DNA of 32,000 nt from Candidatus Methylomirabilis limnetica (GTDB lineage: Bacteria; Methylomirabilota; Methylomirabilia; Methylomirabilales; Methylomirabilaceae). The DNA lies in assembly GCF_003044035.1 (NCBI RefSeq), contig NZ_NVQC01000008.1:30001-62000 (forward strand), written 5' to 3'. This document shows positions 10,882 to 29,531 of this stretch, one piece after another. Numbering within the stretch: the stretch's first letter is position 1; every line of letters starts with the position of its first letter. A program made the translations under genes and the position numbers. Under the pieces are notes generated by a model that had not been told where the DNA came from, ran no database searches, and was given only the letters and a program-made list of their open reading frames with translations.

Positions 10882-11334
10882 TTCAGTCCGTCCCTCCGTT
10901 GGTTAGTTGAGAGTTTTAGATGATATCGTCCTTCATCATAGGCGAACCCGTCCGATGCGACAAGCGATTTTTCGGGCCTGAAGCCTCTTTGGAGATGGGC
11001 TACAGTGCCACCCCTCTTTGGTCGACAAGTACACTCTCGAGTTGAAAGGCATGGCTGCATGCGGAGGCAAGTACGGAGGATTTGACCGAGAAAAAGGATT
11101 GGAACGGAGCATGTGCCCGGCCGCAGTTACGGCTTGACATCCCCTCTGATCGGAGGGTAGCTTTTGGCTGCCCTGGAGGCGCAGACGGCGCTATGCGTGT
11201 GAATAGCCCACATTCCTGACCAGAAAACTTTAGATGCAGACGACCATGGGTTTACCTGGGCATCTCAGCGGCTGCAAAGGAACGTGTAAGTGAATCCTGA
11301 ATCTATTCACTCCGAGCAGAAGCACCGGCGCCAA

Positions 11335-11928
11335 ATGACGGTGGCTTGCATCACCTTGATCGTTTCGACCATTGCAGCACTGGCAGCACTCGGGACTGTA
11401 TCGGAGATCAGGAATCATCTTTGCTATGAGCACGACATCAACAGTGTTTGCTCGAAAGTCCAAATCAGCGAATCCGAAATGAGGGTATTTGCGTGGTATC
11501 CGGAGGCGAAGCCATTAAGCTCGTCACCTTCCACCCCTAATCCTTACCTGGACGCTTTGACTCCCAGCAGAATTGTGCACGATATTCCACCTTACGAAAA
11601 ACGCTCATACGCCAGCGGTTTCCCGAGCGGAAAACAACAGTGGCTATACTGGGAAGCGCGTCTTAAGTCTCATCTTCCTCCATTCGGCTCAATCAGGTTC
11701 GTGGTCCATTGGACGACTTACGATGCAAGTGGCAATCCTGTCGCAGGCGGTGTCTTTGAGGCCACGTGGGGTGCCGATGACCCGGTAGCCCTTATTATTG
11801 GCCCTGTCGACACAGTTCCAATTGGAGCTACCAGTCAATTTTTGCGGGGGCACTATGAGGTCGTTCTGAAGGTGTATGGCAATAAACTGGCAGAGTCAGA
11901 AGTTCACGGCGGATTCGATATTTACTGA
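11335..11928 (+). CDS. Hypothetical membrane-anchored protein (orphan)
   Basis: The start is placed at ATG 11335 (MTVACITLIVSTIAALAALG, an N-terminal TM helix). A Pro/Ser linker and a beta-rich C-terminal domain follow. No family was recognised. The region looks more AT-rich than its neighbours by eye. Confidence 0.5.
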   Translation: MTVACITLIVSTIAALAALGTVSEIRNHLCYEHDINSVCSKVQISESEMRVFAWYPEAKPLSSSPSTPNPYLDALTPSRIVHDIPPYEKRSYASGFPSGKQQWLYWEARLKSHLPPFGSIRFVVHWTTYDASGNPVAGGVFEATWGADDPVALIIGPVDTVPIGATSQFLRGHYEVVLKVYGNKLAESEVHGGFDIY

Positions 11929-12060: not shown

Positions 12061-12089
12061 TTGACATTCCATACTAGCAATCGTATAGT
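12061..12089 (+). promoter_or_regulatory. Near-consensus sigma70-type promoter (TTGACA-N17-TATAGT) upstream of the decahaem gene
   Basis: TTGACA at 12061-12066, a 17-nt spacer, and TATAGT at 12084-12089, about 65 nt upstream of ATG 12154. The same hexamers, spacing and following CC recur at 18534-18562. Confidence 0.5.
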
Positions 12090-12153
12090 CCCTCTACTGC
12101 TCGATTTCAGAGTCGCGTTTCCGTTTACGCTTGACACCTATAGGGGTTCAAAG

Positions 12154-13155
12154 ATGAAGAAGCGTGACACTGTGGCCGCTTTATTGCCCTTGCTATTTGT
12201 TGTTCTCCTTGTTGGATGGGCGTGCAGTCGATTTAGCCCGTCGCCCTCCGGAAAAGAAGCTCTCCCCGCGCAAGCCCCATCCGCCACGACCACCGTTGCC
12301 CCTCGACCTCAGTGGACCGGTCCACCGCCCGGCGCCAAGTATGTGGGGAGTGAGTCCTGCCTGACGTGCCATGAGGAGTCGAGCCAGCGCTTTCATAAGA
12401 CGATGATGGGGCGGATCATGTCCGTAAACCCGCGCACCCCCCAAGAGCAGCGGGTCTGTGAGTCGTGTCATGGCCCTGGGGGCCCTCACGTAGCTGCGGA
12501 GGGCGATGCCATTGAAACATTGATGACGTTCAAGAAGGGGGCAGAGCCGGTCGAGGCACAGAATGCCACGTGCGTGAACGGCTGCCATGAAAAGGGTGAG
12601 CACACTTCCTGGAAGGGGAGCACCCACGAGATGCGTGGCGTGGCCTGCGTGACCTGTCACAAGGTGATGGAGTCGGTGTCCGCCCGATACAACCTGGCGA
12701 AGCCGACCGCGATCGAGGTCTGCTCGCAGTGTCACCAGACCCGCCGGGCCCAGCTCCAGCGCAGTTCGCATATGCCGCTGCGCGAGGGGAAGATCAGTTG
12801 TAGCGACTGCCACAACGCGCATGGGACCGCCACCCAGGCGATGCTCAGGGAAGATTCGGTCAATGACAACTGTTACAAGTGCCATGCGGAGAAGCGGGGG
12901 CCGTTCCTCTGGGAACATGCGCCAGTCACAGAGAGCTGTACGAACTGCCACGAGCCGCACGGCTCCACAAATCCGAGACTCCTGAAGGTCAGGGTTCCCA
13001 GGCTCTGTCAGCAGTGTCATGTTGAGACCCGACACCCAACGAGCCCATACAATCCGACGACCGGAGCAAGGCAGGTCACCAACAGGGGCTGCAACAACTG
13101 CCACCAGAAGATCCATGGGTCAAACCATCCATCAGGATTCGCCTTCACGAACTGA
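12154..13155 (+). CDS. Periplasmic decahaem c-type cytochrome, DmsE/MtrA/PioA/MtoA family
   Basis: 333 aa from ATG 12154 (aGGGG upstream) with a signal or lipoprotein-like N-terminus. It has nine CxxCH motifs plus one CxxxCH (CVNGCH) in the third position. Family-typical blocks are present: KYVGSESCLTCHE, CESCHGPGGPHV, PFLWEHAPVTESCTNCHEPHGS and CNNCHQKIHGSNHPSG. Confidence 0.9.
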   Translation: MKKRDTVAALLPLLFVVLLVGWACSRFSPSPSGKEALPAQAPSATTTVAPRPQWTGPPPGAKYVGSESCLTCHEESSQRFHKTMMGRIMSVNPRTPQEQRVCESCHGPGGPHVAAEGDAIETLMTFKKGAEPVEAQNATCVNGCHEKGEHTSWKGSTHEMRGVACVTCHKVMESVSARYNLAKPTAIEVCSQCHQTRRAQLQRSSHMPLREGKISCSDCHNAHGTATQAMLREDSVNDNCYKCHAEKRGPFLWEHAPVTESCTNCHEPHGSTNPRLLKVRVPRLCQQCHVETRHPTSPYNPTTGARQVTNRGCNNCHQKIHGSNHPSGFAFTN

Positions 13156-13188: not shown

Positions 13189-15603
13189 ATGGGAGCGTTA
13201 ATCAGGATGAGATGGGTCAGCAAAGCACTACTGCCCGCCATAGCCCTGCTGCTGACGGTCGTCGCATCGGGTTACGCAGAACAGGCCCCGCCGGAGGAGG
13301 CTCTCCCGTCTTGGGCCAAATGGCTAAACGGTCGACTGCCATTCAACTTTGAGCTGACCGAGTTGGATATCGAGGGCGGTTATCGCGACATCGATGGCAG
13401 CCGGAGTTCGGCCAAGTTTCAGGAGTACCGCGTCCTTGAAGAGAGTCCCTTTATGGACCACCTTCGACTCTCCATGGAGACCAAAGATAAAAAGCACTAC
13501 ATCGACTTTACTACGCTAGACAGCTTCAAGCAGGACCAAAGCTACCTGTTTAGAGCAGGGCAGTACGGTGGCTATGAACTGGAGGTCTTCTGGGATCAGA
13601 TCCCCCATCTGCTGAGCACCACAGGACGAACACTCTTTACCACCACGCATGAGGATAGTACGGCGAGTCTAACCCTGCCGCCTGGTGTCGCATCGACGGT
13701 CCAGGCCGCTACCCCAGCCACAAGGGGCTCCGTGATGGCCGGCTTTCTGGTCAATGCCGCACCGACGGATCTCAGTTTCCTGACCACCAAAGCGGGATTC
13801 AAGATGAAGTACAACCTGACAGATTCACTGGATGTCGGTGTCCGCTATACCTTCACGCAGAAGGATGGGACGATTCCCTTTGGTACCGGTTTCGGTGGCC
13901 CGGGGAGCCTTATCGAGCTTCCGGCCCCCCTCTTTAACCGCACCCACCAGGTTGAGGCCAAGACCCAATATGCTCGGCCGGGTTGGAACGTTAGTCTTGG
14001 CGGCGCCGCATCGATCTTCGACCAGGGCATCGACAACATCACGTTCGACAACCCGCTCTCGGCAACGGACAGCCCGACCGTTGCCTCTCGCGGCCGGACC
14101 ACCATGGACCCGAACAACCAGGCGTATAACCTGTTTCTCTCTGGCGGCGTCTCCCTGCCGCTTCAGACCAGAGTCACGGGTAAGGTCTCCTACGGGTGGC
14201 GGCTCCAGACTCAGGATTTCGTCCCGCATACCATCAACCCCGCTTTGGCAGCCAATCCCCTATTGGCGCTCCCAAAACGCGATCTGGATGGAGATGTCCA
14301 AACAACCCTTGTGACGATCAACGGGACGAGTCGCCCGATTACCACTGTCCCGCTGACGCTATCCGGTGGCTACCGCTTTTATGACTTCAATAACCGATCA
14401 TCTGAGATCGAGTTCACTGCGCATACGGTCCGGGATACGTCGCTCACGGCCGAGACGCGGGCCAACGCGCCCTTCTCCTACACGAAGCAAAATGGTCGCC
14501 TGGACGCGGGTTATTCCCTCCTCAAGGACCTTCATCTCAATATGGGTTACGAGTGGGAGCGGTGGGACCGCGATCCGAAATACCGCGAGGTGCAGACCAG
14601 TGATGAGCACTTCTTAAAAACCAGCCTCGACTTTACGCCGATAGACTGGCTGCTCCTTAGAGGCGCCTATCGCCGGAGTTGGCGCAACATCGACAAGTAC
14701 GTGCCCCAGGCCCATCATGCGCATATCGTCACCGACATCGAGGGGGAGACAGATCCAGAGGTCCTGGAGCTCCAGGGTCAATCGACTCTGCTTCGGAAGT
14801 TTGACGAAGCCGACCGGACACGGGACAGGGTCGAGATTTTAGCGTCGATCACCCCGATCGAGACACTCAACTTTACGGCGACCTATGGCCTTATGCGGGA
14901 TGATTTTGACAAGTCCCCGCTCGGGCTGCAGGAATCGCGGGGATGGAGCCTGGGTGGCGATTTGGCCTATAGCCCTCGCCCGTGGCTTTCGTTCTTCGTG
15001 AACTACATGAGGGAGGAGTTTAAGTATGATCAGCTCTCTCGCTCCAGGCCGGTCGTCGGCAACGTATCTACGGCGACCGCTCTGGCGCCGGGGTGTGCGT
15101 TTACCTCCCCTTCCGCCGCAACCAGTAACGCGGTCTGTGACTTTACCGATTTTAATTGGAGGAGCATTAACAGAGATAGGGTAGACACCTATGGGGTAGG
15201 CGCCGACGTCAGCCTGATTCCCAACCGTCTCAACCTGCGGTTGAGCTACTCCTTTTCTGACGCCGACACGATCATCGATTCGTCCAACCCTGTCGCTCCG
15301 GAGCTCCACCCACCCACGACTGGGGCCACCCAGCGGGCTACGGCGACCGCCGTCCGGTATCCCCTGGCGAACACGAACCTGCACACCCTGATCGCCGCGC
15401 TTCGCTATAATATGACTAAGAACTGGAGCCTTAATGGCGAGTATCGATTTGAGCAGTTTCGGGAGACCGATTGGGCGACCGACGCGATTGGGACGTCTGG
15501 CCTAACGACCTTACCCCCGACGGCCGATACATATTTAGGCGCTCGGTTCCTCCAGAATTACAACGCCCATATTGCTGGTTTTACGCTTCGCTATAAGTTC
15601 TGA
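13189..15603 (+). CDS. Outer-membrane beta-barrel, MtrB/PioB (decahaem-associated porin) family
   Basis: 804-aa ORF starting 33 nt after the decahaem gene (GGGGAGGTG SD). It has a signal peptide (ALLPAIALLLTVVASGYA-EQ), alternating-polarity beta-strand character throughout, and a C-terminal FTLRYKF-stop typical of OMPs. Its size matches PioB/MtoB, and the gene order is MtrA then MtrB. Confidence 0.8.
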   Translation: MGALIRMRWVSKALLPAIALLLTVVASGYAEQAPPEEALPSWAKWLNGRLPFNFELTELDIEGGYRDIDGSRSSAKFQEYRVLEESPFMDHLRLSMETKDKKHYIDFTTLDSFKQDQSYLFRAGQYGGYELEVFWDQIPHLLSTTGRTLFTTTHEDSTASLTLPPGVASTVQAATPATRGSVMAGFLVNAAPTDLSFLTTKAGFKMKYNLTDSLDVGVRYTFTQKDGTIPFGTGFGGPGSLIELPAPLFNRTHQVEAKTQYARPGWNVSLGGAASIFDQGIDNITFDNPLSATDSPTVASRGRTTMDPNNQAYNLFLSGGVSLPLQTRVTGKVSYGWRLQTQDFVPHTINPALAANPLLALPKRDLDGDVQTTLVTINGTSRPITTVPLTLSGGYRFYDFNNRSSEIEFTAHTVRDTSLTAETRANAPFSYTKQNGRLDAGYSLLKDLHLNMGYEWERWDRDPKYREVQTSDEHFLKTSLDFTPIDWLLLRGAYRRSWRNIDKYVPQAHHAHIVTDIEGETDPEVLELQGQSTLLRKFDEADRTRDRVEILASITPIETLNFTATYGLMRDDFDKSPLGLQESRGWSLGGDLAYSPRPWLSFFVNYMREEFKYDQLSRSRPVVGNVSTATALAPGCAFTSPSAATSNAVCDFTDFNWRSINRDRVDTYGVGADVSLIPNRLNLRLSYSFSDADTIIDSSNPVAPELHPPTTGATQRATATAVRYPLANTNLHTLIAALRYNMTKNWSLNGEYRFEQFRETDWATDAIGTSGLTTLPPTADTYLGARFLQNYNAHIAGFTLRYKF

Positions 15604-15694: not shown

Positions 15695-16150
15695 ATGGTT
15701 GTGCCACAGCAAGATGAACAGGTCGATTATGGGCGGCGAACGGTGAATTGGCTTCTCGGGAGTTCCATCGGCGTGCTCTTCGTATCCATCCTTTACCCGG
15801 TTGTAAAATACCTGATTCCCCCAAAACTTGCCGAGCCGACTACGTTTAGCGTGACCCTTCCCTGGAAGCTTGCGGAGTTGAAGGCGAACTCGGGGCGGAT
15901 ATTTCGATTCAGGAGTCGACCTGGCCTCTTGGTGAAGACGTCGGCTGGTGAGTTAAAGGCCTTCTCAGCGGTCTGTAGCCACCTGGAATGCACGGTGCAA
16001 TACCGGGAAGAGCGGCAGGACATCTGGTGCGCCTGCCACAATGGCGTGTTCGACCTGAATGGAAAAAATATCAGCGGCCCGCCGCCTCGGCCCCTGGAGT
16101 CTTTGAAGTTGAACGTTCGTGGCGATCAGATCGTCGTTATGAAAGGGTAG
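15695..16150 (+). CDS. Rieske [2Fe-2S] subunit of a cytochrome bc/b6f-type complex
   Basis: 151 aa with an N-terminal TM helix. Rieske boxes are CSHLEC (box I) and CACHNGVF (box II). The start is either ATG 15695 or, with better spacing to GGAGG, GTG 15701. Confidence 0.9.
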
Positions 16151-16154
16151 CCAT

Positions 16155-17243
16155 GTGATGGGGGATCGGATCACGGCTTGGCTTGAAGAGCGAATCGACC
16201 TTTCGGCGCTCAAGCACCTCATCCAGAAAAAGGTCATCCCTGTCCATCGCCATACCGTCTGGTACTATGTCGGCGGGATGACGCTCTTTCTCTTCGGGAT
16301 CCAAGTGGCGACCGGGATCCTGCTGACCCTCTACTACCGGCCCAGCTCCGAGGAGGCATACGAGAGCGTTCAATTTATCGTGACCGAAGTCCAATTTGGC
16401 TGGCTCGTTCGGTCGATCCATAGCTGGTCAGCCAATCTGATGGTGTTGACAATGATGATCCACATGTTCAGCGTCTACCTAACTCAAGCCTACCGAAAAC
16501 CACGAGAGCTGACATGGGTGACCGGAATATTGCTTTTCGGCATTGTGCTTTTCTTCGGGTTCAGCGGGTATCTGCTACCATGGAATGTCCTCTCGTACTT
16601 CGCCACTAAAGTCGGGACCGAGGTCACTGGGCAGCTTCCGATTGTGGGTCATTTTCTGGTGCGGCTCCTCAGGGCTGGTGACGAGGTCTCGGGTGCGACG
16701 CTTTCCCGCTTTTTCGGCATCCACATTGCAATCCTGCCGGCGCTCACCACGCTGATACTCGCCCTCCACCTCCTCTTGGTCCAGAAGCAGGGGATGAGTG
16801 TTCCTGCAACCGTAGAGCGTGCCCAAGCGGGACAGCCGCTCAGGACCATGCCGTTTGTCCCCAATTTTCTGCTGCGAGACCTCTTCGGCTGGTTCGCCGC
16901 CCTTGGGCTCTTGGCCGCCCTGGCCGCTATGTACCCATGGGAGCTGGGACAAAAGGCCGATCCTTTCGCCCCCGCACCCGCTGGGATCCGACCGGAATGG
17001 TACTTTGTCTTCATGTTTCAGAGTTTGAAGTATATCCCGGCCAAGGTCGGTCCATTTGACGGTGAGGTCTTGGGGGTCCTGGGCTATAGTCTGGGCGGGC
17101 TGTTCCTTTTACTGGTCCCATTTCTGGACAAAAGGACAGCCCGGGGCGAGCCAAGCCCGCTCTTCCGATGGATCGGGATCGGTATCATCGCGTACATCGT
17201 GATACTCACCGCGCTTGGATATTTCGCGCCTGCCTTCAAATGA
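16155..17243 (+). CDS. Cytochrome b (fused b6-like N-terminal part + subunit IV-like C-terminal part)
   Basis: 362 aa starting 5 nt after the Rieske stop. The bis-His haem ligand pairs fall in helices B and D ([19 protein letters not shown] and [22 protein letters not shown]), and a PEWYF motif is present in the C-terminal part. Confidence 0.92.
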
Positions 17244-17250
17244 GGAAGCC

Positions 17251-18519
17251 GTGAGGATCGCGCTGCGCATCGCGTGCTTCGGCCTTATCCTGATCGCGGC
17301 CGGCCTGATCCGCGTCCCCTTCGCGGAGGCGCAGGATGCCTGTGTTGACTGCCATAAGGCATCAAAAGAGGAGCGCCTCAGCCGTCCGGCCTTGAAGATT
17401 AAAGACGATTACCACCTGGCGCGTGGACTGGGCTGCCAGAACTGCCACGGCGGTGACCAGGCCGCAGTCGGCAACAAGGCGCAGAGCCACAGTTCGGCCA
17501 AAGGGTTCCTGGGCAAACCGAATCGGCGCGCGATCCCTGAATCCTGTGGGAAGTGCCACAGCGATCCAGTCTATATGCGGAAGTTTAATCCTTCCATTCG
17601 GACAGACCAGGTAAAGGAATACTATACGAGTCTCCATGGCAAAAAGCTTCGCGAAGGAGATCTGAAGGTCGCCGTCTGTACCAGTTGCCATGACGTCCAT
17701 GCCATCCGTGCCAGCAAGGACCAGGCGGCATGGACATATCCTGTCAAGGTCGCTGAGACTTGCGCTCGCTGCCACGGTGACGCTGAATACATGAAAGGCT
17801 ACAAGATCCCCACCGATCAGCTTGAGAAGTACAAGCAGAGTATTCATTACGAGATGTTGACCAAGAAGGGGGAGCTCGCCTCTCCGACGTGCAGCGGCTG
17901 CCACGGTAGTCACGGCGCCGCCCCTCCCGGCATCGATTCCGTGGCGAATGTCTGCAGCCACTGTCATGCAGCGACGGCCGAGCTCTTCGACAGGAGCGCG
18001 CATAAGGCGGCATTCGCCGAGCTGGGGATGCCGGCGTGCGTGACATGTCATAGTAATCACGATGTCGTGAAACCGTCGGACGCGATGCTGACTGGTGGAG
18101 AAGATACCGCTTGTGCCACTTGCCATGAAGCGAACTCTGCGCCCCTAAAGAAGGCTGCTGAGTTGCGAACTATGATCGAGGGCCTTTCGAGTCAAATCGA
18201 TCAGGCGACGGCAATCCTCACCAAGGCTGAGCACGCAGGAATGGAGATCGGCCATCCTCGATTCGAGCTCATTGCGGCGAAAGACTCCTTGATCAAGGCC
18301 AGAGCAGAAACCCATTTGCTCAAGGTGGAAAAGATCAAGGCTATCACCGACCCAGGGTTCATCGTCGCTCAGAAGAGTCTCACGAGCGGCCAAGACCTCC
18401 TGACCGAGCTGCAGTTCCGCCGCAAGGGGCTGGCGGTCTCCATGCTGGTCATTGGCGCGGTTCTGATCGGCCTCTTCTTAAAGATCCGGGAAGTCGATAG
18501 ACGGAGAGGACCTCGCTGA
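17251..18519 (+). CDS. Membrane-anchored nonahaem c-type cytochrome (occupies the cytochrome c1/f position of the bc operon)
   Basis: The start is placed at GTG 17251 (GAGGAAG SD), 8 nt after the cytochrome b stop. It has a signal-like N-terminus, nine CxxCH motifs, a C-terminal helical region and a single TM anchor (LAVSMLVIGAVLIGLFLKI). Confidence 0.85.
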   Translation: MRIALRIACFGLILIAAGLIRVPFAEAQDACVDCHKASKEERLSRPALKIKDDYHLARGLGCQNCHGGDQAAVGNKAQSHSSAKGFLGKPNRRAIPESCGKCHSDPVYMRKFNPSIRTDQVKEYYTSLHGKKLREGDLKVAVCTSCHDVHAIRASKDQAAWTYPVKVAETCARCHGDAEYMKGYKIPTDQLEKYKQSIHYEMLTKKGELASPTCSGCHGSHGAAPPGIDSVANVCSHCHAATAELFDRSAHKAAFAELGMPACVTCHSNHDVVKPSDAMLTGGEDTACATCHEANSAPLKKAAELRTMIEGLSSQIDQATAILTKAEHAGMEIGHPRFELIAAKDSLIKARAETHLLKVEKIKAITDPGFIVAQKSLTSGQDLLTELQFRRKGLAVSMLVIGAVLIGLFLKIREVDRRRGPR

Positions 18520-18533
18520 CAATACCGCCGGCA

Positions 18534-18562
18534 TTGACATGAATAGGTAGAGCGGCTATAGT
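18534..18562 (+). promoter_or_regulatory. Second near-consensus sigma70-type promoter (TTGACA-N17-TATAGT) inside the cytochrome locus
   Basis: TTGACA at 18534-18539, a 17-nt spacer, and TATAGT at 18557-18562. It lies 15 nt after the nonahaem gene stop and about 180 nt upstream of ATG 18744. Confidence 0.5.
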
Positions 18563-18743: not shown

Positions 18744-19157
18744 ATGAGATCAATGATCGGAGGGAGCGCGAGGCTTGCTCTCGCGTGCCTCCTGCTTGTG
18801 AGCTTCACGCCATCGCGTAGTGTCGCCCAGCCAAAACTGAAGATTCCACCCCCCTTCGCCTTCGAGCAGAAGACCAAGGATGAGGCGGGGAACATGAGCT
18901 TTGGGAAGGTAACGTTCGATCACAACGTGCATATTGAAAAAGGCCAAAAGTGCCTGAGTTGCCACGGCAAGGGTAAACCCTTCAAAAATAAGAATGGAAC
19001 CTCTCCGGACATCACCATGAAGGCCTTCAATGAAGGAAAGGCGTGTGGTACATGCCACAACGGGAAGGTTGCATTCTCCACAAAGGAGATAGGCAATTGC
19101 CTGAAGTGCCATAAGGTCAGTACGGTTCCGCAGCCGAAGAGCACCGAGACGCAGTAA
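18744..19157 (+). CDS. Periplasmic trihaem cytochrome c, c7/c3 (PpcA-like) family
   Basis: 137 aa with an AAGGAAG SD and a signal peptide (ARLALACLLLVSFTPSRSVAQ). It has three CxxCH motifs (CLSCH, CGTCH, CLKCH) and the VTFDHNVH motif typical of c7/c3 domains. Confidence 0.85.
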   Translation: MRSMIGGSARLALACLLLVSFTPSRSVAQPKLKIPPPFAFEQKTKDEAGNMSFGKVTFDHNVHIEKGQKCLSCHGKGKPFKNKNGTSPDITMKAFNEGKACGTCHNGKVAFSTKEIGNCLKCHKVSTVPQPKSTETQ

Positions 19158-19259
19158 CTGGATTGTGGCAGGTGGCCGACTTGAGAGTGCGCCTCTTCAC
19201 GGTCCCTGCTATCGCGCGCCCTGTTTGGGAACGTGGGTAGCGATACCATTTCACGCTTG

Positions 19260-21443
19260 ATGATGAGGAGCGCATGCTACGGAAAGGCGGCCGGGGGCCT
19301 TTTCCTTGTTTGGCTTTTTCTGCCCATAGCTCCGAATGTCTTCGCGGTCGTCTCGGAGTTGCCTGCCACTTCTCAGGAGTGCTTGGCCTGCCACAACGAT
19401 CCCGACTTGAAGAAGGAGATCGGGGGAGGGCGATACGCTTCGCTGCTCGTAGAGCCGGCCGACCTGATTCAATCCGCGCACAAAGAGCTTGCCTGCGCCG
19501 AGTGCCATGGTGGCATCCCAGAAGGGTCTCACGCCGAAACGCCCCAGCCAGTACGTTGCAGCGCCTGCCATCTCAAACCCCATGAGAATGTTCCGGATAG
19601 CGCTCATGCCAATCTGGGGGGTATAGGCCCCAGCGCCAATTGCATCGCCTGTCATGGTAGTCACCGAATCCAGAAGATAGCCGCCGATGGCAACGTCAGC
19701 CTCTGCGCTTCGTGCCATGGCCGCCAGGCGAAACATATGGCCGCCGGCATTCATGCCGGTAGCCGCGGGGAGAAAACCAGGCATCTGCCAACCTGCGCCA
19801 CGTGCCACAACACGGCCCACGCCGTCAAATCTCACCGCGATCCTGTGTCGCCCACCCATCGCTCGCAGATTCACGAAACCTGTGCCCGCTGCCATGCCGA
19901 TCCGAAGGTGATCGCCGAAGAACAGATCACCAGGCCGCGGGCCGTTGCGCTCTTCGTGCAAAGCATCCACGGCCAAGCCATCCTACAGAAAGGCAATCTC
20001 ACTGCCGCAACCTGCACCGATTGCCATGGCGCTCACGAGATCCGACGAGCTGCCGATCCCGCCTCTGGCGTCTTCAAGCAGAACGTCGCCGTCACCTGCA
20101 AGCAGTGCCACGACGACGTAGCCAGTCAGTTTCAGGACAGCGTGCACGGGAGGGCCGTCTCACACGGGGTTTTCGCGGCGCCGACATGCACTGATTGCCA
20201 CGGGGAGCATGGGATCACTGCCACCCGCGCCCCGGGATCGCGAGTGGCGCCGCTGACCGTCTCCAAGACCTGCGCTGCCTGCCACGAGGCGGTACGGGTG
20301 GTCGAGGAGTTTGGCCTCGCGCCGCGGCGAGCCGGGACGTTCTTTGAGAGCTTTCACGGCCTGGCTGCGAGAGGTGGGTCGCCCGTGGTGGCCAACTGTG
20401 CAAGCTGCCATGGGACCCACAATATTCAGCCCTCCTCCGATCCTCGCTCCACCGTCAACCCGATGAACCTCTCGCGAACCTGTGGGCAGTGCCACCGAGG
20501 CGCCGGCATACAATTGGCCAGTGCCAGAATTCACGTGGCACCAGGGTTCGGCGAGCACCCATGGGTAACCCTGGTCCGACAGATCTACCTTGTGATTATC
20601 TTTGTCACCATTGGCGGGATGAGCCTGCACAACGGGCTTGACTTCCTGGTACATCTGCGAGAGCGTTGGCGAACAGAGGGGCAGCAGGAAGACGAACCCC
20701 GCGTGCCTCCCGAGGTGGCGCGCCGTCTCTTTGAGCGATTGACACTCAATGAGCGGATTCAGCACGTTACGCTGTTTGCGACCTTCACGATCCTGGTGAT
20801 TACCGGTTTTGCCCTGAAGTTTCCTGATGCGTGGTGGGCACGGCCGCTGGTCTGGATCGAAAGCGGATATGCCGTCCGAGCCTGGCTACATCGAATCGCC
20901 GGCGTGCTCATGACGCTGGCGGCAGGGTATCATCTGGCGTATCTCTTCGGCACGCAGCGTGGCCGGGCTCAGTTCCGATTGATGCAACCCTGCCGACGGG
21001 ATGTAGGCGAGGCATGGGAAATGGTGACCTTTAATCTGGGTCTGCGGCCACACCGGCCCCGTTTCCACCGCTTTACGTACGTAGAGAAGCTGGAGTACTG
21101 GGCGGTCATGTGGGGAACTGTCGTTATGGCCGGCACCGGGTTTATCATGTGTCTACAAACTATTGTGCTGAAGCGCTGGCCCCTTTTGGTTATTGACCTG
21201 GCAAGCGTCGTCCATTATTACGAGGCATGGCTTGCAACGCTTGCTGTCCTGGTCTGGCACTTCTACAGCGTCATCTTCCGGCCTGATATCTACCCGATGA
21301 GCCAGGTCTGGCTGACTGGGAAGATTACGGGAGAACAAATGGCCAAGGATCACGCTGCCGAATTGGAGGAGACGCTTGCGGCAGAAACCGTGCTAAGCTC
21401 ATTGCCGGGAGATAAGAAGGCGGAACCGCGGGTAAGTATCTGA
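19260..21443 (+). CDS. Fusion protein: 13-haem c-type cytochrome domain + C-terminal membrane b-type cytochrome domain (FdnI/HydC-like; CbcL-like architecture)
   Basis: The ORF opens at GTG 19233, and ATG-ATG at 19260/19263 is the likelier start. After the N-terminal TM/signal segment, 13 CxxCH motifs occur in the first roughly 430 aa. The last roughly 280 aa carry 4-5 predicted TM helices with conserved His residues (IQHVTLF, WLHRIAG, VHYYEAW, VWHFYSV). Confidence 0.85.
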   Translation: MMRSACYGKAAGGLFLVWLFLPIAPNVFAVVSELPATSQECLACHNDPDLKKEIGGGRYASLLVEPADLIQSAHKELACAECHGGIPEGSHAETPQPVRCSACHLKPHENVPDSAHANLGGIGPSANCIACHGSHRIQKIAADGNVSLCASCHGRQAKHMAAGIHAGSRGEKTRHLPTCATCHNTAHAVKSHRDPVSPTHRSQIHETCARCHADPKVIAEEQITRPRAVALFVQSIHGQAILQKGNLTAATCTDCHGAHEIRRAADPASGVFKQNVAVTCKQCHDDVASQFQDSVHGRAVSHGVFAAPTCTDCHGEHGITATRAPGSRVAPLTVSKTCAACHEAVRVVEEFGLAPRRAGTFFESFHGLAARGGSPVVANCASCHGTHNIQPSSDPRSTVNPMNLSRTCGQCHRGAGIQLASARIHVAPGFGEHPWVTLVRQIYLVIIFVTIGGMSLHNGLDFLVHLRERWRTEGQQEDEPRVPPEVARRLFERLTLNERIQHVTLFATFTILVITGFALKFPDAWWARPLVWIESGYAVRAWLHRIAGVLMTLAAGYHLAYLFGTQRGRAQFRLMQPCRRDVGEAWEMVTFNLGLRPHRPRFHRFTYVEKLEYWAVMWGTVVMAGTGFIMCLQTIVLKRWPLLVIDLASVVHYYEAWLATLAVLVWHFYSVIFRPDIYPMSQVWLTGKITGEQMAKDHAAELEETLAAETVLSSLPGDKKAEPRVSI

Positions 21444-21521
21444 GTAAAAGACTCGAATCAGCAAAAGAGGAGTATTGTTGTAAAGCACACCTCGTGAGGT
21501 GCTGTCCAACCCTGGTGCACG

Positions 21522-21609
21522 AAAACCCCCTCAATCCCTCTTTGCGAAAGGGGGAGGTAAGGAAACGTATACGTATCCCCCTTTTTTGAAAGGGGGGTCA
21601 GGGGGGTTT
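21522..21609. repeat. Composite GC-rich palindromic repeats (two units of the PPFxKGGxGGF family) downstream of the cytochrome locus
   Basis: Inner palindromes are ccctctttgcgaaaggggg (21536-21554) and tcccccttttttgaaagggggg (21576-21597). They are enclosed by aaaaccccc (21522-21530) and ggggggttt (21601-21609). One frame reads PPFLKGGSGGF. The structure may also act as a transcription stop. Confidence 0.75.
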
Positions 21610-21674
21610 GTCTGAAGCTGACGGCTGATCGTTGATTGCTGAATACTATTTTCGAAGGAAACTCAGAGGAGATA

Positions 21675-28700: not shown

Positions 28701-28922
28701 TTGCTTTGGTAGATGTAGATGTTAATTGTTGACGCCTCCTTAGGGTAAGTGTGGGATATTGCAGGCAAAAGTCGTCGTTGCGAAGTGGAGCCGTCTTGCG
28801 AGGTAGGCTACCGGCCTTTGTCGGTCTCTAACGCGGCTCGTGTAATAGATGGCGCGGACGCTCCGCGAGTCAATCTGCTCATCACGCTCGACGTTAATCA
28901 CGCAACACGTTATGATACGCCT

Positions 28923-29201
28923 GTGATCAAAACGTTCCAGTGCGCCGACACAGAAGCTCTCTCGAAAGGCCGGCGGGTCAAGCGGTTCGTGCGCATCGAG
29001 TCGGTCGCGCGCCGCAAGCTGCGACAGCTACAGATCGCAGACCGGCTTGAAGACCTCCGTGTGCCACCGGGCAACCGGCTGGAAGCGCTCAAGGGCGACC
29101 GCGCCAGGCAACACAGTATCCGCATGAATGATCAAATTCGGGCGTGCTTCCTCTGGACGGCTGCGGGCGCCGAGGACGTTGAGATCGTGGACTATCATTG
29201 A
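28923..29201 (+). CDS. higB: Type II toxin, HigB (RelE/ParE superfamily, killer protein)
   Basis: The conserved region starts at GTG 28923 (VIKTFQCADTEAL...PPGNRLEALKGDRARQHSIRMNDQIRACF...VEIVDYH). It is followed 12 nt later by higA, in toxin-first order. The ORF-track start at 28749 adds an unsupported 58-aa extension. Confidence 0.85.
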   Translation: MIKTFQCADTEALSKGRRVKRFVRIESVARRKLRQLQIADRLEDLRVPPGNRLEALKGDRARQHSIRMNDQIRACFLWTAAGAEDVEIVDYH

Positions 29202-29213
29202 TGGAGGGAGACC

Positions 29214-29531
29214 ATGCGTAAGCTCAAGCCCGTGACGCCCGGCGAGTTGCTGCGCGAAGAGTTTCTGATCCCGATGGGCCTCACGCAATATCGCCTCGCC
29301 AAGGAAATCGGTGTGCCCGCCCAGCGGATCGGTGACATCGTGGCAGGCAAGCGTGCCATCACGGCGGGCACCGACCTGCGCCTGTGCCGGTTCTTCGGTC
29401 TTTCCAACGGTTATTGGCTGCGGGCGCAGGCGGCCTATGACACCGAGGTGGCGGAAGAAGCCCTAGCCAAGACCCTGGCGAAGATCAGACCGTGGGTGGG
29501 AGTGCCCACTCATGCTGGTTCTATGGCCTAA
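29214..29531 (+). CDS. higA: Type II antitoxin, HigA (XRE HTH)
   Basis: The sequence is typical of HigA: PVTPGELLREEFLIPMGLTQYRLAKEIGVPAQRIGDIVAGKRAITAGTDLRLCRFFG. Confidence 0.9.
   Translation: MRKLKPVTPGELLREEFLIPMGLTQYRLAKEIGVPAQRIGDIVAGKRAITAGTDLRLCRFFGLSNGYWLRAQAAYDTEVAEEALAKTLAKIRPWVGVPTHAGSMA

Follow-up and report, generated by a model that had tools for sequence, protein, structure and literature searches.

The gene and its product

A 32,000-nucleotide (nt) stretch of the genome of Candidatus Methylomirabilis limnetica (contig NZ_NVQC01000008.1, positions 30,001 to 62,000; below, the window, in whose coordinates positions are given) carries on its forward strand a gene (19233-21443, + strand) encoding a 13-haem c-type cytochrome and a dihaem cytochrome b in one chain. 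It stands downstream of genes for an MtrA-like decahaem cytochrome, an MtrB/PioB porin, a Rieske/cytochrome b complex and a c7-type trihaem cytochrome. Sequence comparison makes it likely that the product, here called the target, is an inner-membrane cytochrome of the CbcL/MtrH/MtoC kind, linking the quinone pool to periplasmic multihaem cytochromes.

The open reading frame (ORF) extends for 736 amino acids (aa) from a GTG at 19233; a 99%-identical homologue (P0001) has 726 aa, which suggests the ATG at 19263 as the start. Thirteen CxxCH motifs lie at aa 50, 88, 109, 137, 158, 188, 217, 261, 289, 319, 347, 389 and 417, and every Cys within aa 1-430 belongs to one of them, with the sole exception of C15. 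This count is not due to chance, since shuffling of the target residues gave a mean of 0.07 CxxCH and never more than 3 (20,000 shuffles). The N-terminus is a hydrophobic signal peptide or anchor without a lipobox (aa 18-44; 19284-19364, +), seen in the hydropathy profile and in the low predicted local distance difference test (pLDDT) scores of an AlphaFold2 (AF2) model. It is followed by an N-terminal extension with haems 1-4 (aa 45-157; 19365-19703, +), which has no collinear counterpart in the 9-haem CbcL, and by haems 5-13 (aa 158-421; 19704-20495, +), which are collinear with haems 1-9 of a CbcL-type protein.

A 100-member family alignment contains 13 invariant non-motif His residues in the c domain (H83, H100, H125, H144, H174, H196, H246, H268, H305, H326, H375, H396 and H434), and the presence of one such residue per haem suggests that all 13 c haems are bis-His ligated. 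Ligation of this type has been demonstrated for the periplasmic domain of CbcL (PMC9129911). A PDB search with the single target sequence gave no significant match, and a family profile was needed. The best sequence match of this profile was 28pb_A, over profile positions 32-175 (approximately the N-terminal third of the haem domain), and further matches to the c domain were 6R2Q chain A (333 aa), NrfB and nine-haem cytochromes. Despite a differing PDB label, 6R2Q chain A is probably the MtrA subunit of the Mtr complex from Shewanella baltica.

The initial annotation, made from the sequence alone, had raised the concern that a frameshift might have fused two separate genes. Among 5.8 billion proteins searched there were more than 7,000 matches, the best 120 of which were analysed for architecture. 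Most of these are 700-730 aa long and combine a multihaem domain with a PF01292 domain, and 99 of the 120, from many independent assemblies, have exactly 13 CxxCH at the spacing of the target within a single gene, which rules out a frameshift. In addition, the junction (aa 430-510) contains the invariant residues H434, Y452, I456, H466, D470, E507 and R508, and the signal of GC content at third codon positions (GC3) is unbroken in frame across the ORF. The fusion of c and b domains is real, and the earlier concern is settled in its favour.

The cytochrome b domain

Hydropathy, the AF2 model and the alignment place a linker transmembrane (TM) helix at aa 442-466 (20556-20630, +), running from the periplasm to the cytoplasm and ending in the invariant motif LHNGLDF. 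Four further TM helices (aa 509-532, 555-573, 623-647 and 656-683, from hydropathy and the AF2 model) bring the total after the signal to five. The loops at aa 474-508 and 574-622 are Arg-rich and are therefore assigned to the cytoplasm, so that the haem domain faces the periplasm, in line with the earlier description of 13 CxxCH in about 430 periplasm-facing residues. A hydrophilic, cytoplasmic C-terminal tail of 53 aa (aa 684-736; 21282-21440, +), homologous to the tail of FdnI, completes the protein without a sixth TM helix.

Pfam, profile and Foldseek comparisons all identify aa 505-683 (20745-21281, +) as a four-helix dihaem cytochrome b domain of the FdnI/HydC type. The Pfam family Ni_hydr_CYTB (PF01292) matches these residues with 42.5 bits against a cut-off of 30.1 (E=7.7e-11), and the target shares the pattern of that family, in which four helices form a bundle and helices I, II and IV supply the His ligands. 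In the 100-member alignment, H466, H511, H553, H661 and H676 are the invariant His residues of the membrane part, and H567 is nearly invariant. The family profile aligns with E. coli FdnI (1KQF_C) from end to end (E=2.5e-7); the profile alignment pairs the FdnI haem ligands H18, H57, H155 and H169 with target H511, H553, H661 and H676, respectively, and the FdnI cytoplasmic tail with the target C terminus. The AF2 model, built with the family alignment as input (pLDDT 84.5; predicted TM-score, pTM, 0.73), has 1KQF_C as its top Foldseek match in the PDB (TM-score 0.81 on the target, root-mean-square deviation 3.6 A, probability 1.0), and the cytochrome b of E. coli hydrogenase-1 as a weaker one. 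The hydrophobic helices with conserved His residues that had been compared with FdnI and HydC are thus confirmed by homology, ligand alignment and predicted fold.

By analogy with FdnI, H553 and H661 are proposed to ligate a periplasmic-side b haem, and H511 and H676 a cytoplasmic-side one. The same analogy would place a quinone site at the cytoplasmic face, near the conserved residues Y616, K619, E621 and Y622 that precede the third helix of the domain. The linker helix has a further conserved element at its cytoplasmic end, GGMxLHNGLDF (aa 462-471; 20616-20645), which includes the invariant H466 and D470. The 13-haem proteins of the alignment (set A1) keep it, one 9-haem relative (P0169) has it in part, and it is not conserved in the CbcL-type comparator; it may form part of a site for quinone or protons, or act as a ligand.

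FdnI, the gamma subunit of E. coli formate dehydrogenase-N (1KQF chain C), shares with the target the four-helix fold, the four ligand His residues and the cytoplasmic tail; HyaC of hydrogenase-1 (4GD3) is a further known relative of this b fold. Unlike the target, FdnI has neither a c-haem domain nor a linker helix and docks to FdnGH; no Fdn or hydrogenase catalytic subunits are encoded near the target. An assignment of the target as FdnI itself was rejected: its score against the NCBIfam FdnI equivalog TIGR01583 was 35.5 bits, below the cut-off of 115.85, and the window contains no genes for molybdopterin or Fe-S subunits. The b domain is FdnI-like, and the low equivalog score indicates that the protein is not a formate dehydrogenase subunit.

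Relationship to CbcL, MtrH and MtoC

The CbcL/MtrH/MtoC family has been described as spanning 15 phyla, with proteins of 416-1034 aa that contain 3-23 CxxCH, conserved His residues and mostly six TM helices, and with genes frequently located beside mtoAB/mtrAB (PMC6295460). Its delimitation used BLAST at E<0.01, and identities within it range from 28.6 to 100%; the published family table lists forms with 3, 8-12 and 19-23 motifs, none with 13 and none from NC10 (PMC6295460). CbcL itself is a quinol oxidoreductase with nine c haems and a dihaem b domain that reduces the c7 cytochrome PpcA (PMC9129911), and its quinone site has been inferred to lie at the cytoplasmic side (bioRxiv 10.1101/2022.08.31.506072).

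A tblastn search of plasmids for a named CbcL/MtrH comparator gave no match. A CbcL-type gene, stitched by hand from a frameshifted metagenome contig (L088) and hence approximate, was used to stand in for GSU0274, the CbcL of Geobacter sulfurreducens. It has 9 CxxCH (at 38, 61, 86, 109, 132, 161, 189, 232 and 260), with the published spacing of GSU0274 at an offset of 3-4 residues, and a sixth TM helix at the C terminus. BLASTP aligned target residues 158-710 with residues 38-559 of the stitched protein at 28% identity (198 bits, E=6e-59). Haems 5-13 of the target align with haems 1-9 of this protein, TM1-5 align, and target H511, H553, H567, H661 and H676 are all matched by His. The alignment is collinear, and the target thus amounts to the core of CbcL, extended by four haems at the N terminus and lacking TM6. 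The expanded CbcL-like fusion of the initial annotation holds in respect of this alignment and the added haems; TM6 is missing, and the architecture proved not to be unusual.

The CbcL of Geobacter, including its Desulfuromonadales orthologues, and the target of an NC10-like host are alike in having a periplasmic multihaem c domain, one linker TM helix and an FdnI/HydC-type dihaem b domain. They differ in haem number (9 vs 13), length (619 vs 736 aa) and TM6 (present vs none), and LHNGLDF at the end of the linker helix is a feature of the target subfamily rather than of CbcL. A trihaem partner of the c7 type is common to the two, PpcA in the case of CbcL (PMC9129911) and the product of the adjacent c7 gene in that of the target, and in this respect the locus mirrors the CbcL-PpcA couple of Geobacter by analogy.

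MtoC and MtrH, represented by Daro_1404 of Dechloromonas aromatica, Galf_2006 of Gallionella ES-2 and Rfer_4073 of Rhodoferax ferrireducens, were compared by description. Their clusters carry mtoAB/mtrAB and a small periplasmic cytochrome (PMC6295460), and the target cluster has the same layout. Unlike the target, these proteins have 9 haems, six predicted TM helices and 655-673 aa. MtoD is a monohaem cytochrome. It is the small partner in the MtoC/MtrH clusters (PMC6295460), where the target cluster has the c7. The target shares with the family a multi-CxxCH periplasmic domain, an FdnI/HydC-like b domain, similarity to CbcL and clustering with mtrAB, and it has five TM helices where most listed members, though not all, have six.

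Gene neighbourhood

The cluster is headed by a gene for a conserved 212-aa protein (11290-11928, +) that matches no Pfam or NCBIfam family and lacks haem motifs; it is syntenic in the related loci L001 and L002 (59-65% identity), and its product may be an accessory of the porin-cytochrome. Next come, 4-7 kb upstream of the target and on the same strand, the genes for a decahaem cytochrome of the DmsE/MtrA family with 9 CxxCH and 1 CX3CH (12061-13155, +; TIGR03508, 266 bits) and an outer-membrane porin of the MtrB/PioB family (13189-15603, +; PF11854, 394 bits). The MtrA-like ORF opens at TTG 12061, and ATG 12154 (MKKRD..., with a lipobox-like VGWAC) is its probable true start. A sigma-70-like site matching the consensus at 11 of 12 positions (TTGACA-17-TATAGT, 12061-12089) lies just 5' of this ATG.

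Family searches identified the next two genes as encoding a Rieske 2Fe-2S subunit (15695-16150, +) and a cytochrome b in which b6-like and subunit IV-like parts are fused (16155-17243, +). The 3' end of the latter is overlapped by a gene for a 9-haem c-type cytochrome with a C-terminal TM anchor (17215-18519, +), which is probably the c subunit of the Rieske/b complex.

The c7-type trihaem periplasmic cytochrome (18744-19157, +; 3 CxxCH) was assigned by TIGR04257 (63.4 bits, cut-off 40) and by PDB 3OV0 (E=2.5e-40), and its gene ends 75 nt upstream of the target, or 76 nt if the coordinates are simply subtracted. A second sigma-70-like TTGACA-17-TATAGT site, also 11/12, occupies the gap before it (18534-18562, +). 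This site has the same hexamers as the one before mtrA, and a comparison of the two regions revealed no wider similarity and no extended regulatory sequence in common. The c7 gene had earlier been described as standing under its own strong promoter; the c7 identity stands, and the promoter is a consensus match only, in a region with 6 promoter-like sites against 4.8 expected. The sigma-70-like site before c7, together with the lack of a terminator-like site between c7 and the target, hints that the two genes form one unit.

Farther along the window, at 28749-29531, is a pair of genes for a HigB-like toxin and an HTH_3 antitoxin-like protein, which is unrelated to the target.

Conservation of the cluster in relatives

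The closest named homologues of the target, at 70-82% identity, come from metagenome-assembled genomes (MAGs) of NC10/Ca. Methylomirabilis, and the cluster as a whole has about 80% DNA identity to a Ca. M. oxygeniifera MAG. The order MtrA, MtrB, Rieske, cytochrome b, 9-haem c, c7 and target is identical in the NC10 loci L001 and L002, on the same strand and with short gaps. The module from Rieske to target recurs in two other NC10 loci (L004 and L008), and c7 keeps its position before the target in all four. Loci of other phyla lack the porin; in about 20 of 87 loci, a Rieske/cytochrome b pair is found no more than 10 kb from the family gene.

A more frequent neighbour is an ImcH-like gene: 55 of 80 species-representative loci have one at a distance of up to 10 kb, mostly adjacent to the family gene (within L012-L087, e.g. 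L018:8462-9934, L060:8368-9822 and L033:12871-14436). The encoded protein, of about 490 aa, starts with 3 TM helices and has five CxxCH, one CX3CH and a NapC/NirT/NrfH module beginning near aa 115, features that correspond to the published ImcH signature. A 42%-identical ImcH-like gene also follows the 9-haem CbcL-type gene of the comparator contig (L088:7076-8524). The recurrence of this arrangement suggests that ImcH-like and CbcL-like proteins form a genetically linked two-gate module outside Geobacter.

Two further arrangements were noted in the related loci. Several Acidobacteriota loci have, directly upstream of the 13-haem/b gene, a gene for a soluble-looking cytochrome of about 690-740 aa with 19 CxxCH and MtrC/MtrF-like plus DmsE-like modules (L017, L032, L037, L052, L062, L081 and L084, at a distance of about 2 kb). 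The two NC10 loci of identical gene order encode, between the target and a tetratricopeptide repeat (TPR) gene, an N-terminally anchored NapC/NirT-type cytochrome of 731-732 aa with 16 CxxCH (L001:12139-14337 and L002:12192-14387). This gene is cleanly absent from the window at 21444-21635, where tblastn found no remnant, so that the present organism lacks at that spot the second quinol-dehydrogenase-type gene of its relatives. In its place is a 192-nt spacer (21444-21635) with no counterpart in L001 or L002, which contains a G/C-rich imperfect inverted repeat of about 88 nt (21522-21609) that occurs once in the window; the segment 21444-21640 folds with -74 kcal/mol (z = -3.6 vs shuffles). 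The repeat could be a terminator or a deletion scar.

Distribution and haem number

Relatives of the target are encoded in at least 335 species-representative genomes, from NC10, many Acidobacteriota, Bacteroidota, Ignavibacteriota, Calditrichota, Latescibacterota, Binatia and Verrucomicrobiia, and those examined have 11 or 13 haems. The 13-haem form is abundant in metagenomes. Database labels name these relatives only as "cytochrome b/b6 domain-containing" or "formate dehydrogenase gamma subunit".

A search with the membrane domain alone recovered 2,105 representative clusters at 50% identity, 375 of them at E<=1e-30. In the best 150 clusters the attached c domains contain 0-19 haems, 11 being the commonest number (37 clusters) and 13 occurring in 5 clusters; haem number is thus a modular, variable trait of the family. 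TM6 is missing from each of the 12 top relatives by membrane domain for which the TM profile was inspected, and in most others the match ends near the C terminus. The 9-haem matches of this search were considered as CbcL-type proteins and rejected in the cases examined, which differ in haem spacing and have no TM6. The target belongs to a known, very widespread family of quinone-pool electron gates, and the present analysis adds context to that family rather than a discovery.

Proposed electron route and its direction

From the architecture, haem ligands, fold, CbcL homology and conserved synteny demonstrated above, we infer a quinone site, partner proteins and an electron direction for the target. 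Its FdnI-type four-helix domain would hold two b haems stacked across the membrane, with a quinone site at the cytoplasmic face beside the H511/H676 haem, as in FdnI. The 13 c haems, all bis-His ligated, would form a periplasmic wire connected to this domain by the single linker helix, and this wire most likely exchanges electrons with the c7 encoded just upstream. The c7 would in turn connect the wire to the MtrA-like decahaem/MtrB porin conduit of the same block. In parallel, the Rieske/cytochrome b/9-haem complex would tap the same quinone pool at the outer face, oxidising quinol there with conservation of energy. Because its quinone site would be on the cytoplasmic side, quinol oxidation by the target would release protons to the cytoplasm and conserve no energy, and the reverse reaction would be electrogenic. 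Non-conserving quinol oxidation has been argued to suit the low-potential role of CbcL (bioRxiv 10.1101/2022.08.31.506072). A second, potential-specific gate to the quinone pool beside the Rieske/b complex, as first suggested for this gene, is plausible and fits the conserved synteny.

Several points weigh against a CbcL-type role in extracellular electron transfer. Identity to CbcL is only 28%, and the comparator was stitched from a frameshifted contig; the target also lacks the sixth TM helix that is present in most published family members. The role of the 13-haem subfamily is read from sequence, a structure model and synteny, and the direction of electron flow is not readable from sequence. 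No gene for an MtrC-type outer-surface cytochrome was found among the cluster genes scanned. Other members of the family adjoin Rnf/POR genes (L003) or a cluster of NuoEF and formate-dehydrogenase-like genes (L005); in view of these unrelated contexts the module appears generic, and it is synteny alone that points to extracellular transfer here.

The alternative that survives best is a reversal of the route, in which the target would act as a quinone reductase, as has been proposed for MtoC. Extracellular Fe(II), reduced humics or a cathode would donate electrons, which would pass through MtrAB and c7 to the 13 haems, the two b haems and a quinone at the cytoplasmic face, and energy would be conserved as half of a redox loop. 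Both the reductase function and this uptake route are possible, but we would not expect either. They stay live since MtrA and MtrB are encoded here without an MtrC-like surface cytochrome, an arrangement (MtoAB/PioAB) that iron oxidisers typically have and in which mtoC is the CbcL homologue; moreover, formate dehydrogenase-N uses the FdnI topology in exactly this direction. An FdnI-type loop, however, needs a donor well below the quinone potential, and Fe(II) at neutral pH is too oxidising; uphill flow would more usually take the co-encoded Rieske/b complex. The frequent ImcH-like neighbours also argue against uptake, since ImcH has so far been implicated only in quinol oxidation, and comparison of sequences has not distinguished members that oxidise quinol from those that reduce quinone (PMC6295460).

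It is rather improbable that the target is a general membrane anchor, supplying or draining periplasmic enzymes such as nitrite and NO reductases via the cytochrome c pool, with its position in the cluster incidental. FdnI and HydC relatives do anchor periplasmic enzymes, and family members occur in varied porin-less contexts (L003, L005 and many Acidobacteriota loci). Against this, no periplasmic catalytic subunit is encoded near the target in the window, and the c7-target pair is conserved with MtrAB in the closest relatives, L001 and L002, in the same order and on the same strand with short gaps. Finally, that an assembly or sequencing artefact joined separate multihaem and cytochrome b genes can be dismissed, given the single-ORF homologues from independent assemblies, the invariant junction residues, the continuous GC3 signal and a linker helix that the topology demands.

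Implications for NC10 and the family

If the CbcL-type quinone-pool gate favoured here is extended to the whole cluster, the relatives of Ca. Methylomirabilis (NC10) might possess a complete conduit from the inner to the outer membrane, with two quinone-pool gates in one cluster that are chosen according to acceptor or donor potential and both feed a shared c7 and MtrAB. This extension is tentative, and so is the division of labour that it implies, between an energy-conserving Rieske/cytochrome b/9-haem complex and a non-conserving 13-haem/dihaem-b protein of the CbcL type. If true, it would mean metal-, humic- or electrode-linked respiration, or Fe(II) uptake, in NC10. No description of an extracellular electron transfer cluster in NC10/Methylomirabilis, or of a 13-haem form of CbcL, was found in the literature searched.

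The target is ordinary for its family, and its analysis gives the anatomy of the commonest uncharacterised form, with 13 haems and five TM helices. The main interest lies in the NC10 context and in the recurrent ImcH-like/CbcL-like pairing. The occurrence of CbcL-type genes beside ImcH-type genes across phyla suggests that the potential-dependent two-gate logic of Geobacter is widespread as a linked module, and an NC10 genome with a full porin-cytochrome route and two quinone-pool enzymes bears on a possible part of NC10 bacteria in iron-, manganese- or humic-linked methane or nitrogen cycling.

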